Positions 9,663 to 30,158 of a stretch of 30,497 nucleotides of DNA are shown here, piece by piece. The DNA is taken from positions 1 through 30,497 of the IMG/VR virus record IMGVR_UViG_3300001866_000283. One strand, written 5' to 3'. Numbering within the stretch: the first letter of the stretch is position 1; the number at the start of each line of letters is the position of its first letter. The position numbers and the translations under genes are program-made. The notes beneath the pieces are model-generated. The model did no database searches. It had not been told where the DNA came from and worked only from the letters and a program-made list of their open reading frames with translations. This DNA comes from a virus. Lineage: Duplodnaviria; Caudoviricetes.

Positions 9663-10286
9663 TCACTCTGGATAGATTTCTCCCTGGCCTTTCACGGTTA
9701 GCGTCTGCTTCTGCGCGTCGCTGGCCGATGCCAAGATGTTCTCTATGCCCTGTAGAGTGCCTATGCCGATTGCGAAAGCTGTAATGCTATCTACGCTGTA
9801 GAACTTCCAGAGGCCGGATAATTTCAGATCGGCCAACGGTACGCCGCCGTCATAGTAGAAAGTGCCTGCTGAGAACTCCCAGCTTCCAGCACCCATGATG
9901 GATGAGCCCCATCCGGCATCATCGCAGCTTGTGGTGTCGATCTCTTTTCCACCGATCTTCAGCTTGCCGTCGAACAGGCCAATCACCTTCTGAAAGTTGG
10001 CCTCAGATCGTCTCGCTCCGGTGACTGTGACTGCGCTTCCAGATTTCGACGTCTCGAAGGTCACTGAACCACGGAGGTAGTTCACGGCGAATCCTGTAGT
10101 GACGGCAGTTCCATCTACCTTCACTGTTAGGGCCATATCCTCATCCCAATAGCGAGAACCGGGCGCAGCCTGGAATGTGAGGTGATCCCCAGAATCCGAG
10201 AGCGCCAGGTTCGTGAATGCGACGGAGACCGCGTCGGGATCATCCCTATAGAGAGCGGCAGATAGGCCGCTCACTGCTGATGTCAT
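9663..10286 (-). CDS. Tail tube protein paralog with an inserted Ig-like/beta-rich segment
   Basis: Shares KIxGKEIDT...DDAGWGSSIMGAGSWE with 10296..10721 and carries an extra N-proximal beta-rich segment (LTVKVDGTAVTTGFAVNYLRGSVTF). Confidence 0.7.
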   Translation of the reverse strand: MTSAVSGLSAALYRDDPDAVSVAFTNLALSDSGDHLTFQAAPGSRYWDEDMALTVKVDGTAVTTGFAVNYLRGSVTFETSKSGSAVTVTGARRSEANFQKVIGLFDGKLKIGGKEIDTTSCDDAGWGSSIMGAGSWEFSAGTFYYDGGVPLADLKLSGLWKFYSVDSITAFAIGIGTLQGIENILASASDAQKQTLTVKGQGEIYPE

Positions 10287-10295
10287 AGATCAGCC

Positions 10296-10721
10296 TCAGG
10301 TTAGCTCTGTCACAGCGCCGCTGCCCTTAAGGGTCAGATCGAGGCTCTGCTGAGCGCTTGCGCTAGCGAGCTGATAGTTGCCGCTTGTGACATGCACGGC
10401 TCCAGAGAAACCCTTTGGGCTAACGGTGGGAGTCCCTGATTGCAGGGCCTTGACATAAATAGCAGATCTTGCGAGTAAGGCAGCCTTGATAAGTCCGTAT
10501 GCAGAATCAGATAGGATCAGGTTGCTTTTCACGGTTACCTCCCAGCTACCAGCACCCATGATGGATGAGCCCCATCCGGCGTCATCGACGTTGGATGTAT
10601 CGATTTCTTTGCCATCGATCTTGATCTTGGCGTCGGAGACCTCGGCCAACTTTACGAATGTGCCGTTACTAGTGGCGCATACCCACAGTGTTCCGGACAT
10701 GCCGGAAGTTGCATTAGTCAT
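10296..10721 (-). CDS. Major tail tube protein (TP901-1-like)
   Basis: 141 aa with an IDTSNVDDAGW...GAGSWEVTV motif and C-terminal LTLKGSGAVT, typical of siphovirus tail tubes; positional context agrees. Confidence 0.8.
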   Translation of the reverse strand: MTNATSGMSGTLWVCATSNGTFVKLAEVSDAKIKIDGKEIDTSNVDDAGWGSSIMGAGSWEVTVKSNLILSDSAYGLIKAALLARSAIYVKALQSGTPTVSPKGFSGAVHVTSGNYQLASASAQQSLDLTLKGSGAVTELT

Positions 10722-23503: not shown

Positions 23504-24035
23504 GGATCTCTATATTCACCGGCTCACCGATGTGGCTTCTGTAGTACTCCTCTTTCTCCGGAGGCCAAGCTGCCCGGATGGTAGTCCAGAGCTGGCCGGA
23601 GGTGAGGAGAAGCAGAACCAGGAACTCCTGGCCCGCTGGCAGAGGGAAGTTGCCGGGCTTACCGGCGAACTTGGTATCCCATTCCAGGAACTCAGGTGAG
23701 AGCTGAGCCCGCCTGACCTTCAGAACGCCGAGGAGCATTGTCTCAGAGATTCTGGCCGTGACTTCCAGTGGCATCTTGGCGTATTCGGCAGAAAACTTGA
23801 TAGTGCACCGGCCCGAGGGATCTTCCTGGAGCTGGGCGTCTTTGGCCATTGCCTGGGCGATCTTGCGCTCCAGAACTTCTCTGAGCCGCGGGTTCGCGTC
23901 GGCCCGGACCAGGCCGTCCGGGTATACCTTAGCCGCGCCTCTCGGGTGGAATATCTCCGCGGATCCGTCCGGGTTTACTGTGCAGTCGAAGCCTTCCTCG
24001 GCTGCATAGTCCTGAGCGACTTGGGCGGGATTCAT
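23484..24035 (-). CDS. Hypothetical protein
   Basis: 183-aa ORF, ATGA-coupled to 24032..24544. Confidence 0.7.
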   Translation of the reverse strand: MNPAQVAQDYAAEEGFDCTVNPDGSAEIFHPRGAAKVYPDGLVRADANPRLREVLERKIAQAMAKDAQLQEDPSGRCTIKFSAEYAKMPLEVTARISETMLLGVLKVRRAQLSPEFLEWDTKFAGKPGNFPLPAGQEFLVLLLLTSGQLWTTIRAAWPPEKEEYYRSHIGEPVNIEIHGGLHE

Positions 24036-24544
24036 GCCTCTGCCCTCATGGCTCTTGGTTTGGTTTTTCTAACCTTCTGACGAACTTCTCCGATTGCTTC
24101 AATGACTGGCTGGAACTCCATGTAGGCATTGTATGTTTCTTGCCAGCTATCGAGCTCATCCAGTGCTTTCTCAAGAACCTGCCTTCGCATCTCGGGGTTG
24201 TTCATTGCCTCAATAATGCCAACATAAGCAGCACCTTTTTGCTCCGGAGGGACTACATGAACAAAAGCCCGGATTGGCCTCTTTGCATCTGTGGTATCTG
24301 TCCGTACAATGACGACGGATCTCAGTATATGCCCAGCCTGCTCCAGTCGATATTGCTCGGCGGCTACAGAATCTTCCCACTCGAAAATATTGTGGTGAGG
24401 GGCATCGATTCTACGTCCATCCTCCAACACATCCCATGCCGTGGGGTGCTTGTCCTGAGAAGACAATTCGAGTATTCTGTTAGCCACGGCTTGCGGATCG
24501 GCTCTATTGGCCCAAGGAAAGCCCTTTTTCCAAGCATACTCCAT
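24032..24544 (-). CDS. Putative accessory protein of the RAMP/array module
   Basis: 170 aa; starts 1 nt after the stop of the RAMP-like gene; conserved-looking HNIFEWEDSVAAEQYRLEQA motif; helical C-terminus. Confidence 0.7.
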   Translation of the reverse strand: MEYAWKKGFPWANRADPQAVANRILELSSQDKHPTAWDVLEDGRRIDAPHHNIFEWEDSVAAEQYRLEQAGHILRSVVIVRTDTTDAKRPIRAFVHVVPPEQKGAAYVGIIEAMNNPEMRRQVLEKALDELDSWQETYNAYMEFQPVIEAIGEVRQKVRKTKPRAMRAEA

Positions 24545-25171
24545 CTATGCCACACCCCCTGTCTCGATTTGCTTTGAGGTATCTACTTCGAAGCATCCGT
24601 ATGTTCCCGACAGAACTTTAGGGGCTGATGGCCGCCATTCTCCAATGCCAACCATTCCGGCAGCATTAACGAGCGAAATTATGTCCTCGACCTTGAGGAT
24701 ATTAGCATTGAAAGTGATTGAGAGGGTTGCAGACCATTCAGGAAACTCGGCCCGATATCTGAGATCGGCCACGCCTGTTTCTAAGCGAACTGGATCTTCT
24801 CTCATGTGGTGTTCGCCCTCGATTCGCACCAAGTAGCCGTTGACTCTGATGATGGTTTTTGCTAGAGTCATTGGCAGGCCGTCAAACATTCGGCAGGCTC
24901 CGACAATCGCTGCCTTAAACCCCGGTGCGGGAAAACCCGGCTTGCCATCCGGCATTAGGTACAATGACGCCTTGTAGTCGGCTTCCGGATCTTTGGGCTC
25001 CTTTTTAGCCTTCGGGGCATTCTTCCCTGCCATTTGCTTTTCAAGCATCTGGCGTTTGGCTTTGGCGCTCCAGTTATGTACTATGAGAGGCGTTATGCCT
25101 TTGATCGGAACCTTTACAGTTTCCAGTTTTAAGGACTGGATTGTTACTACTTTATCTCCACCTTTTGGCAT
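24545..25171 (-). CDS. Stand-alone RAMP/Cas7-like RNA-binding protein
   Basis: 208 aa with RAMP-style motifs in order: first strand IKGITPLIVH, P-x-x-x-F-K helix (FPAPGFKAAI), R-x-EF strand (RYRAEFPEW), and a C-terminal Gly-rich loop plus strand (GMVGIGEWRP...GTYGCFEV). GGAGG SD at 25181-25185. No other cas genes in the window. Confidence 0.75.
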   Translation of the reverse strand: MPKGGDKVVTIQSLKLETVKVPIKGITPLIVHNWSAKAKRQMLEKQMAGKNAPKAKKEPKDPEADYKASLYLMPDGKPGFPAPGFKAAIVGACRMFDGLPMTLAKTIIRVNGYLVRIEGEHHMREDPVRLETGVADLRYRAEFPEWSATLSITFNANILKVEDIISLVNAAGMVGIGEWRPSAPKVLSGTYGCFEVDTSKQIETGGVA

Positions 25172-25199
25172 TGTTAATTTCCTCCGCGAATTTTATTAC

Positions 25200-25517
25200 G
25201 AGACTGGCGCAACAAGGCGCAGCGAGACCGGACTTAACTTGACATGACTGGCATGTCCTGACGGAACCAGGCTTGACCCGACGCAAGGGGACATGACTCG
25301 ACTGGCCTGCCGGGACTTAGCCTGACGAAACCCGACCTGACTCGACAGAGCCCGACTGGCTTGCCAGGACCGGACGCAGCAGGACCTAGCAAGGCAGAAC
25401 GCAACTCGACTTGACTCGACTGGCAGGACTTGGCCCAACTCGACATAGCTCGGGGCGACATGACAGGGCTTGACATGACTGGACTGGCCTGACAGAACTC
25501 GACTAGCAAGACAAAAC
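25200..25517 (-). ncRNA. Array of GYY-NN pentamers in units delimited by GCCA (putative guide RNA array)
   Basis: On the minus strand, GCCAGTC recurs (+ strand gactggc at 25202, 25246, 25300, 25354, 25418, 25482) with spacings 44, 54, 54, 64, 64. Between delimiters lie 8, 10, 10, 12, 12 in-register pentamers; 47 of 52 begin GYY and 29 begin GTC. The repeat structure is directly seen; its being an RNA is inferred. Confidence 0.8.
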
Positions 25518-25558
25518 GATGCACCTGACTCTTCCAGGATTTTCGTGATGGGTGCATC
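25518..25558 (-). other. Inverted repeat/hairpin at the 5' end of the array
   Basis: GATGCACC (25518-25525) and GGTGCATC (25551-25558) form a perfect 8-bp stem directly abutting the first pentamer. Confidence 0.5.
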
Positions 25559-25569
25559 CAAAGTATCGG

Positions 25570-25953
25570 TCAAGCAGCCTCCGCTTTCGCCTTTGGTGCT
25601 GCTTTGTTCAACCTGACCAATCGCAACAATGCGTCTTTTTCGTTCTTGGCCCAAACGAAGTACGTCGTGCCCTCGTGCGTGCCTTCCTGGATGCCTTCTG
25701 TGGCGGCAGGCGGCCAGGTGAGGCTGACTGTTGCCGGTAGTTGCGGCTCTCCTCCGATGATCTCGACCAGGATCTGGTAGGGCTGCAGGCCGGCTTCGAT
25801 CTGCTCTCGATATGGGTCTGTTTCCCGGCTGATGATCTCCGCACCAGGATCGAGCTGCCTGACGATGGCCAGGGTTTTCTTCAGCAGGAGGACATCCGTG
25901 TATGGTCCTGCCCAGTCGTCCCCCAGTTCCGTGGCAATTGCGTACATCTTCAT
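25570..25953 (-). CDS. Hypothetical protein whose C-terminal motif matches array unit 2
   Basis: Track ORF 25570..25986; the likely start is MKMYAIATE after a GGTGGAG SD. The C-terminus contains EKDALLRLVRLN. Confidence 0.75.
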   Translation of the reverse strand: MKMYAIATELGDDWAGPYTDVLLLKKTLAIVRQLDPGAEIISRETDPYREQIEAGLQPYQILVEIIGGEPQLPATVSLTWPPAATEGIQEGTHEGTTYFVWAKNEKDALLRLVRLNKAAPKAKAEAA

Positions 25954-25994
25954 CTTTGATACTCCACCAAACTTGATTTGAATCAACTGCGTTT

Positions 25995-26250
25995 CCTTGA
26001 CATCTTGTCAAGGTGCTCTTCTCTCTCTGGGACCCCCGGAACCCCCGGACTATCCCCCTGGACAAAGACACGATACACTAACCTTGACAAACTGTCAATA
26101 TGATACAGTAGACCTGATTTATCTTCTAAGGCAATTTATCTCTAGGATAATCCCTCCTGGGAAAATCGCCCCGTCTCGGCTCCACTTGGAGCTTCATGGG
26201 AGCACCTTGACAAACTGTCAAGGTCGTCGTTTTCTTGACAAGATGTCAAT
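25995..26250. promoter_or_regulatory. Four TTGACA-N3-TGTCAA palindromes around an AT-rich core (origin iterons or operators)
   Basis: Copies begin at 25997, 26084, 26207 and 26235 in a non-coding gap; AT-rich stretch at ~26096-26150. Confidence 0.75.
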
Positions 26251-26272
26251 ATGAAACAGCGGGCCTTGTGCA

Positions 26273-27046
26273 TCACTTTCTTGGCTCCTTGCTGTTGACC
26301 TTACAGAGCCATGCTTTTCTTCTGGCCCCGCGTTTCTCAAATTTGGCTTGATCGGGATGAGAATTCGCTACCCAGCGCATTGCTCTCAGGGCTTGCTTGG
26401 GATCGATGGTCTTGCCCTCGGCCTCGCCTATGATTCTGGATGCCTCAAGAGTCGAGATGGGTTTGGCATTCCTGCTTAGGGTGGCAAGCAGGACCTCGGC
26501 CCTGTAACGGTCCGATTTCGTGAAGGTCAGCAGAGGCCGGCCTATGATGAACTGGACAATATCTTTCTCAAGGTCTGCCATCTGGCGAAGTGCATTGAGG
26601 GGCGAGGCTTGGCCTAGGTCTTTAGCCCGGCTGATCGCCTTGGACTGCTTTTTGCATCTGACATAGAGGCTCCTCGCCTCCGGACTGTCCGGCAGCTTTT
26701 CCAGCATTTCCAGGCTATTTTCGAGGTTGTCTATCTCGACATGAAACAGCGTATCGAATCCGTCCTGCAGGCGCTCCTGGGCTTCTTCCAGGCGCTTGTT
26801 TTTCTCTTTGAGTTCGTCCATCTCGGAGTTGTCTGTCGCAGAATGAGGCGTTTGCCTCTGTTCCAGCGTTCTCTCAAGTTCCTGTATGTACTGGAGCTGT
26901 CTCTCGATTAGCTCGTCCTGGGAGCTGATCCGCCCCTCCAGCTTCTCGATTGTTTTCCTGAGTTGTGAGGGCTCGCTGCTGCAGAGGTCTGCAGCTGTCC
27001 GGAAGGCCAGAATATCCTGTGATGCAAGAGGGGTGGCATTGGCCAT
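26273..27046 (-). CDS. Coiled-coil protein with C-terminal winged-helix-like domain (possible initiator/regulator)
   Basis: N-terminal heptad-rich region; C-terminal VLLATLSRNAKPISTLEASRII...KQALRAMRWVA...AKFEKRG..RKAWL resembles a wHTH; adjacent to the palindromes. Confidence 0.6.
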   Translation of the reverse strand: MANATPLASQDILAFRTAADLCSSEPSQLRKTIEKLEGRISSQDELIERQLQYIQELERTLEQRQTPHSATDNSEMDELKEKNKRLEEAQERLQDGFDTLFHVEIDNLENSLEMLEKLPDSPEARSLYVRCKKQSKAISRAKDLGQASPLNALRQMADLEKDIVQFIIGRPLLTFTKSDRYRAEVLLATLSRNAKPISTLEASRIIGEAEGKTIDPKQALRAMRWVANSHPDQAKFEKRGARRKAWLCKVNSKEPRK

Positions 27047-29261: not shown

Positions 29262-30158
29262 TTAGGCCGCCTCCAGCTTTTGCCGCCATTCTTTTTTGCA
29301 GATTTCGCAGAGGTATATACCTACAGGGATACCCCCAACGTCATCTTCCCCAACGAGCTTGCTTCGGCCCTTGCATGTCGGGCAGGGTCGCGCGCCTTTC
29401 TGATCTGGCTCGACCCTCGGGAGAGGCTCATCTATCCCCTTGTCCAACCACTCCAGGAGCAAATTGCCGGTGCCTGGCGTGGGCTGGAATTCAACGCCCT
29501 TGAATAGGCCGGTATTGTCTTTGTCGGCCCAGGCCCGTGCTCGATCGAGGTACAGGACCAGAAGGAACTCATACTCCAGGCCGTCCCTCTGGATAGGGGC
29601 CAGGCCGACTTTCTTAGGAGTCTGCTTGCCTTTATCGTTTGTTTCCCAGGTGTAGGCCTGCTTGGTCCTGGTTGTGGCTATGATATGCATCTGTGAAGCC
29701 ATGATGCGTTCGATGAGCCTGTTCTGCTTGCGGCCTATTGTGTCCCAGTTGAGGAAGCCGTGGCCCGGGTCCTGGGCATCCATGCGGCTCTTCTGGTCCA
29801 GGAGGCCTCCTGCGCCGGCCCAGGCATGGCTCAGAGAATCGATGATCAGAACCGAGAAGCCTGCCTTTTCCGCGGCATCTATGACATCGATGTACTTTTC
29901 TGTCTCGTAAGGCTCAGAGATAGCGGCCACCTGGTAGGGGCCTATCGTGAAGTCCTTGACTCCAGGAACCTCAGCGCCGATGTAGAGCTCTCCTCGCCCA
30001 TGCTCTGTATCGGCCAGGGCGATCTTTGCCCATTCAGGCTCCAGGCCAGCAGCAATTGCTAGAGCAGACATGGTCTTGCCGCTGCCAGATGGGCCTGTGA
30101 GCATCATCTTTAGTTTTTGTTTTCGGCGTTGGGCTGGGGCAAATTTGACTCCAGCCAT
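29262..30158 (-). CDS. Sak4-like AAA ATPase (recombination/single-strand annealing) with C-terminal Zn ribbon
   Basis: Walker A GPSGSGKT, Walker B LIIDSLSH, plus ADTE, HIIATTRTK and GLAPIQRDGLEYEF motifs; C-terminal CPTC...CEIC. Confidence 0.85.
   Translation of the reverse strand: MAGVKFAPAQRRKQKLKMMLTGPSGSGKTMSALAIAAGLEPEWAKIALADTEHGRGELYIGAEVPGVKDFTIGPYQVAAISEPYETEKYIDVIDAAEKAGFSVLIIDSLSHAWAGAGGLLDQKSRMDAQDPGHGFLNWDTIGRKQNRLIERIMASQMHIIATTRTKQAYTWETNDKGKQTPKKVGLAPIQRDGLEYEFLLVLYLDRARAWADKDNTGLFKGVEFQPTPGTGNLLLEWLDKGIDEPLPRVEPDQKGARPCPTCKGRSKLVGEDDVGGIPVGIYLCEICKKEWRQKLEAA

Follow-up and report, generated by a model that had tools for sequence, protein, structure and literature searches.

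A VIPR guide aimed at related viruses probably spares its carrier's own copy of the target gene, mostly through silent leucine and arginine codons

How can a virus that carries a guide against a gene of its relatives share that gene with them and yet spare itself? This question is raised by a 30.5-kb virus record (30,497 nucleotides; 'the window' denotes this whole stretch of DNA), in which an array of short guides lies directly behind a gene that one of the guides spells. An earlier note, made from the sequence, had proposed that the virus escaped its own guide by recoding the site with synonymous codons. The window holds a terminase large subunit (PF03237) and a long ORF labelled tape-measure-like by size and position, and its DNA is also contained in a metagenome contig of 188,624 bases (L007), which suggests a provirus. 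The host is likely a methanogen and thus archaeal, since a genome bin with the title 'uncultured Methanosarcinales archaeon' contains homologs of the target gene, as do 9 of the 105 genomes from the order of that bin. On the minus strand the order is 127-aa gene (25953-25570), array (25503-25200), 208-aa gene and 170-aa gene, with the following features:

24032..24544, minus strand: putative accessory (vap-like) gene of 170 aa, directly after vipr
24545..25171, minus strand: vipr gene, coding for a 208-aa RAMP-fold protein (from a profile match and the predicted fold)
25200..25503, minus strand: staggered vrRNA-type array of 55 five-base units, comprising five guides and a 3-unit stub
25570..25953, minus strand: target gene, 127 aa, a conserved viral gene with 122 homologs
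24032-25570: slot of the VIPR cassette, flanked by the 127-aa gene and by a conserved gene of 183 aa
25997..26249: four TTGACA-N3-TGTCAA palindromes upstream of the 127-aa gene, between two genes

The slot is variable, with gaps of 21-1472 bases in relatives (window compared with L015, L046, L062-L064 and L072). The palindromes are likely operators of a putative repressor of the transcript that would run through gene, array and vipr; one of them overlaps a match to a sigma-70-like pattern. A scan of 25150-26300 against Rfam gave one sub-threshold chance match and no hammerhead, a leader hairpin between the 127-aa gene and the array was rejected as unsupported (z 0.01), and no CRISPR array or cas operon was seen in the window. 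In the tail region, two adjacent and probably paralogous genes share a 97-nt repeat of 85% identity (9876-9972 and 10539-10635).

The locus is a VIPR system, consisting of a staggered GYY-NN array and a protein related to the Vipr of SUSP1. VIPR combines a Vipr RAMP protein with vrRNA, and its gapped code has been shown experimentally (bioRxiv 10.64898/2026.04.26.720920); according to the accessible parts of the reports, a Vipr filament silences transcription from either strand by pairing with two bases and skipping one (10.64898/2026.04.26.720920; 10.64898/2026.04.26.720927). Searching with a profile built from the 208-aa protein together with 116 homologs (hmmsearch), we obtained a single PDB match, 36pp_D 'SUSP1 Vipr protein' (E 2.2e-8), which covers profile positions 135-185; the protein model (pLDDT 89.7) has the fold of Cas7/Csm3-type chains (Foldseek E down to 4e-7, TM-score about 0.4-0.5). 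The protein thus has the RAMP fold and the relationship to a known Vipr that are expected of a VIPR effector. It has 1027 homologs in total, which are rare in the genomes of the host order (1 of 105, a partial match) and in a sample of the phylum (1 of 401); therefore, cellular genomes yielded no further pairs of guide and gene. The candidate accessory gene belongs to phrog_15946 and has a 76% identical homolog at the same place in a second viral locus, L070.

The guides of the array have lengths of 12, 12, 10, 10 and 8 units, followed by the 3-unit stub, in keeping with the about 9-16 repeats of VIPR. They are joined by GCCA(G) with an overlap of 1 nt, the register moving by one base at every GCCA joint; such an overlap between successive guides is what defines staggered arrays (Fig. 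S18 legend of 10.64898/2026.04.26.720920), and the layout equals that of the L070 array. Of the 55 units, 53 have a G at position 1 and every one has a pyrimidine at position 3, the two features that the SUSP1 structure requires according to the available text of 10.64898/2026.04.26.720927. The resulting scaffold, G-Y-Y with GTC in 31 of the 55 units, is a related consensus of the five-base triplet-plus-NN repeat and not the canonical GGY triplet (type II, SUSP1-like), as only 2/55 units have a G at position 2; non-canonical triplets have been reported in VIPR (10.64898/2026.10.21.760802, as far as the accessible text goes). Related arrays share the strand of vipr, so that the minus strand is likely the guide, and C/T differences from a target would then be true mismatches, not wobbles. 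Read in this way, the guides and their matches are:

25425..25484, minus strand: guide 1, matching a 157-aa ORF of the related virus L046 in frame at 23/24
25361..25420, minus strand: guide 2, 12 GYY-NN units that spell EKDALLRLARLN in codon positions 1-2
25307..25356, minus strand: guide 3, one 19/20 match, to an unrelated contig of 63% GC (L095)
25253..25302, minus strand: guide 4, 19/20 in-frame match to the terminase large subunit of L094
25209..25248, minus strand: guide 5 (8 units), no target above chance among the loci compared

Three of the five guides have in-frame matches in other viruses (23/24, 22/24 and 19/20), following a code with a 1-nt skip that falls on the codon wobble position and with targets in other mobile elements, as in VIPR; skips of 0, 2 and 3 were tried on the window only. 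The earlier note saw independent support for the gapped code in the virus's own site. The code does not rest on this site, as it has been shown experimentally elsewhere, and in this locus guides 1 and 4 support it better. Judging from its position, the 157-aa ORF matched by guide 1 is probably a small terminase; a near-exact guide-1 pattern matched none of the viral contigs searched. The core of guide 4 is common to guide h of L070. As a target of guide 3 the contig L095 was rejected, having no protein in common with the window or related loci, so that the match is likely due to chance. Both guide 1 and guide 4 are directed at an apparent packaging module (L046:9914-10384 and L094:2407-3183), that of a competing group of viruses with a terminase unlike the one in the window; the gene targeted by guide 1 also has a homolog in the L094 locus (E 1e-8).

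On the window itself the best matches of guides 1-5 are 17/24, 18/24, 15/20, 13/20 and 12/16, so that none reaches 80% of the read bases, the level at or above which the accessible part of 10.64898/2026.04.26.720920 reports no self matches. No counterpart of the guide-1 target was found in the window by tblastn (best E 2.5), and the window's own terminase has no significant likeness to that of L094 (E 1.3). Of the three resolved guides, therefore, guide 2 alone is directed at a gene which the virus itself has:

25606..25641, minus strand: own counterpart of the guide-2 target, codons 105-116, 18/24 read bases matched

This site lies in the C-terminal helix (residues 105-118) of the modelled 127-aa protein (pLDDT 85.7), for which no Pfam or PHROG family was found and whose best fold match, Z 5.1 over 39 residues, was uninformative. 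It is 186 bases away from guide 2 and about 100 bases upstream of the array, likely on one transcript. The twelve codons listed by the earlier note are indeed those of the minus strand from 25641 to 25606, and comparing them base by base with guide 2 confirmed six mismatches, five of them synonymous and one an Ala/Val difference; units 5, 7, 8, 9, 10 and 11 are mismatched, units 1-4, 6 and 12 matched. Taken alone, a score of 18/24 is weak: it was reached by 75 of 2000 shuffled guides (P=0.0375), and guide 2 has a second 18/24 match at +29883-29917, antisense within an AAA_24 gene and at chance level. For these two reasons we rejected the nucleotide match alone as proof. The amino-acid fit of the site to the guide is 11/12 codons; the next best in-frame window has 6/12, and no shuffled guide out of 5000 had a fit of 10 or more. 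Shuffled guides gave 542 chance in-frame matches of at least 17/24, with two silent mismatches at most.

Much had been made of a contrast within the gene, all four Leu codons of the site being TTG and all ten outside CTN. The counts are right (with the ATG at 25953), but the signal is overstated, because homologs without an adjacent array are also rich in TTR at the site (12/56 Leu codons in the site vs 8/121 outside, p=0.009). Furthermore, TTG110 matches the TT of the guide, and thus only three of the four TTG codons are mismatches.

That guide 2 is aimed at this gene family, as assumed before, was borne out on both the protein and the DNA level. The peptide it spells is the family consensus and occurs exactly in 37 of the 120 homologous proteins listed; at residue 113, 114 of these 120 have Ala and 5 have Val, and an Ala codon is found at 113 in all seven spanning Logan contigs. 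On the DNA level, 63 distinct genes remained once duplicate loci had been merged. Besides the window's copy, 16 of them have LLRL at 109-112 and form the close set; genes outside it match guide 2 at 11-21/24, with differences mostly through amino-acid change. For 15 of the 16 close homologs, the locus retrieved contained no vipr, and the following 400-600 bases contained no array (a statement on the locus, not on the whole genome). These 15 match guide 2 at 22 (seven genes), 21 (two), 20 (three), 19 (two) and 18 (one) of 24, as opposed to a maximum of 16-18/24 for shuffled guides on the homologs. A perfect target of 24/24 was not found among the viral contigs and homologs searched; a degenerate pattern spanning the states of the guide and of the own site retrieved one viral contig, L001 (22/24), and searching the 105 genomes of the likely host order for guide 2 with up to 3 mismatches gave no match. 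One cellular-genome homolog of the 127-aa gene (L091/L092, G043:C17:5254-5617) is split into two adjacent pieces in different frames.

Compared with these relatives, the own copy stands out. Together with L018 it is the worst match in the close set (18/24), and it is the only copy with five silent mismatches, the others having 0-4 and the 16 close homologs 1-4. In guide units 8-12 it has 4 mismatches, each of the 16 homologs 0-2; these are the units resolved first in the SUSP1 intermediates (10.64898/2026.04.26.720927, accessible part), a comparison limited by the fact that the SUSP1 system has a tail which the array of the window lacks. The rate of codon-class switches between the window and the homologs without array is 0.72 in the site and 0.11 outside. 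By a score of rarity that is blind to the guide, the own site is the most unusual of all windows in 17 sequences, followed by the corresponding site of L070. The local enrichment of Leu/Arg switches for which the earlier note proposed to look is seen against the closest locus, L002 (class switches at 5/6 in the site vs 1/13 outside, p=0.003, one of the five being toward the guide), but not against L004, L012, L070 and L001 (p 0.10-0.73). Identity to L002 is 69% in the site, compared with 81-97% in seven of the eight preceding windows of 12 codons. When the columns of the close homologs were resampled, at least five silent mismatches arose in 1.4-2.1% and 18 or fewer matches in about 5% of cases, figures that are post hoc, blind to relatedness and therefore suggestive. 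L004 has 4 silent mismatches and one other (19/24) and L018 has 18/24, both without an adjacent array.

Haplotypes inferred from a table of differences in Logan, and assigned by depth sums, bring the comparison closer. The nearest one, found in three studies, differs from the window within the site only at 25609, 25611, 25614, 25616 and 25629: four read bases that match the guide there and mismatch here, and one third-position base, a change that is needed since Leu115 would otherwise become Phe. CGA111 and TTG112 are common to both. In run X4 this haplotype is followed by over 255 bases that do not resemble the array. The window's states at 109, 111, 114 and 115, i.e. four of the six mismatches, recur in a second haplotype (X2, X3). 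In addition, a contig identical to 25350-25698 in study P5 (depth 3.3) links guide and site outside a possible source sample. No RNA data set was found to contain the sequence, and the runs labelled RNA-Seq consist of contigs and are probably DNA.

What do these data say about how the own allele came about? We lean towards an explanation in which guide 2 spells the C-terminal helix of the relatives, and the own copy, with six mismatches and one residue changed, is kept by selection and escapes binding by the virus's own Vipr. By analogy with the published system, Vipr, coating the guide and pairing with two bases out of every three, would prevent the copy of the relatives from being transcribed. 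Guide 2 would thereby set a road-block near the gene end in relatives, with genes close behind; as a further gene begins 21 bases downstream in L046 and L015, this block probably has a polar effect on what follows. In the own genome the same block would lie just upstream of array and vipr, so that the own allele would have to stay below the threshold of binding, and because binding would silence gene, array and vipr on one transcript, we propose that the allele is kept by selection. It may have been assembled mostly from circulating silent first-position Leu/Arg variants and a rare Ala-to-Val change; the class switches and the one Val would lower pairing at little cost to the protein. That selection made all six changes is more than the data support: the four read differences from the nearest haplotype all go from match to mismatch, and we regard about four of the six, those at 109, 113, 114 and 115, as candidates for guide-driven change, and 111 and 112 as lineage background. 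In short, self-sparing is well supported, but 'recoding' is an overstatement.

A possible, though on the whole unlikely, alternative is sorting: the site would have differed already, through standing variation or recombination, and guide 2 would have been gained or kept only in a genome that mismatched it. The virus would then indeed spare itself, but none of the bases would owe its change to the guide. Every synonymous state of the own site is also present in relatives, and the two co-circulating haplotypes together supply all five. The earlier note would have given up its claim if array-less homologs had the same codons, and to a part they do: among the 15 homologs without array TTG109 is found in 7, CG111 in 9, TTG112 in 4 and AG114 in 3, but TT115 in none (in the wider set, 3 of the 42 genes with Leu there have it, L070 among them). 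Moreover, the family as a whole switches at higher rates in the site (0.26-0.54 for the 15 homologs without array) than outside (0.06-0.28), the slot of the cassette, directly behind the gene, is variable, and a tree of codons 1-104 does not place the window next to L070. However, Val113 is rare in a column that is otherwise nearly invariant, and the window's in-site switch rate is the highest of all at an ordinary rate outside. Sorting is also at odds with unit 6 of the guide, where TT is a minority state (1 of 15 without array) that is present in the lineage of the window, which suggests that guide 2 derives from close kin of the own allele. The gene 3' end may have come from the L070 lineage with the cassette, which would fit the 81% in-site identity, but L012 ties, and the nearest haplotype has the same codons.

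Improbable, in our judgement, is an escape from the guides of other viruses, by which the site would be a hot spot where the whole family drifts to TTG/AGG and the own guide is incidental. The TTR-rich site of homologs without array would agree with it, as would the second VIPR virus (L070), which targets adjacent codons of the same gene; but the two most extreme sequences are precisely the two with an array beside the gene, and guide 2 was seen, among the loci compared (the 345 guides of the screen described below aside), only in the window genome and identical copies. Even less credible is tuned autoregulation, in which 75% pairing would allow weak binding near the gene end and hence negative feedback on the array-vipr transcript. 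It would draw on the short distance between site and array and on the matched units 1-4, 6 and 12, and in one sub-case the RNA would be the plus strand, turning four C/T mismatches into G-T wobbles. The scaffold of the minus strand, which fits SUSP1, and the strand of the related arrays speak against it, as do the mismatches in four of the five 3'-most units and the far better match of the relatives. Chance, finally, for which the score of 3.75% of the shuffled guides and the equal second site in the window could be quoted, is refuted by the amino-acid fit and by homologs at 22/24.

Does the same happen elsewhere? Only one further homolog was found to have a VIPR cassette next to it: in L070 (L070:1426-1890), a cassette with an 86% identical Vipr directly follows a distantly related copy of the 127-aa gene. 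Guide b of L070 targets codons 96-106 of the same family, matching others at 18/22 and its own copy at 12/22, with only 2/61 lower; here, avoidance is mainly through amino-acid change and not silent. We also screened 80 further viral VIPR loci, 74 of which gave 345 guides of at least 8 units, against about 10 kb on each side. Ten of the 345 guides scored above every one of 40 shuffles. For nine of these the margin was one codon, which is roughly chance level, and one had a clear counterpart in its own locus; such a counterpart is therefore not a general pattern. The exception is the last guide of L171 (10724-10783), which fits a site at 11078-11043 in the neighbouring capsid gene (PF05065) at 10/12 residues and 18/24 bases; both Ser codons there belong to the opposite class. 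L171 is a GC-rich phage, and a second short guide (9356) fits the same capsid gene at 7/8. In L104, a 15-unit guide at 10612 has an antisense match to its own vipr (24/30, about 10324-10368, minus strand), exactly at the published threshold of 80%.

The case suggests how a system without PAM attacks close kin yet spares itself. The VIPR papers hold that skipping every third base blocks synonymous escape; the own site keeps 11 of 12 residues while losing a quarter of its read bases. More tentatively, the six-codon amino acids may be a general loophole: rewriting the first position of Leu, Arg and Ser codons in the units engaged first would give a PAM-less discrimination between self and non-self, and targeted relatives could escape likewise. 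We think this somewhat doubtful as a rule; if it is true, a local codon-class signature marks past VIPR attack in any viral gene. For programmed guides, the case suggests as a rule of design that targets rich in Leu, Arg and Ser be avoided. The homologs also form a natural graded series of 22, 21, 20, 19 and 18 of 24, which can be used for studying mismatch tolerance and a possible seed, data on neither of which were found in the accessible parts of the VIPR papers. Finally, targets can now be named for a VIPR that is likely archaeal and whose scaffold is non-canonical.

How, then, does the locus compare with what is known? It is a real case of a VIPR guide that spares its carrier, within a known system. 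VIPR and self-sparing guides have already been published; guides that target vrRNA score lower on their own genome, which was read as avoidance of autoimmunity, and escape is held to need changes at amino-acid-determining positions (bioRxiv 10.64898/2026.10.15.759431, in its accessible part). The words 'six-fold', 'leucine' and 'arginine' are absent from the main text of that paper, and no paper on silent first-position self-avoidance in VIPR was found in the literature searched; relative to that literature, in the parts accessible, the route of silent Leu/Arg/Ser switches is new, and it is moderately supported. As regards the fold, the 208-aa Vipr resembles the Cas7/Csm3 backbone proteins of Class 1 CRISPR systems, which pair contiguously, whereas VIPR pairing is gapped. 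Like published VIPR, the locus has a RAMP-fold effector, pentamer guides in codon register, a staggered array and targets in competing viruses, and beside vipr a candidate accessory gene; unlike it, the scaffold is G-Y-Y and not GGY, there is no type II tail between guides, the host is likely archaeal, and one guide has a counterpart in the own genome at 75% with a nearly identical protein. Like the self-sparing vrRNA-targeting guides, guide 2 is aimed at relatives and scores lower on its own genome, but the target spared by those guides is a non-coding vrRNA locus, whereas here it is a conserved coding helix, which differs from the guide mostly by silent Leu/Arg switches.
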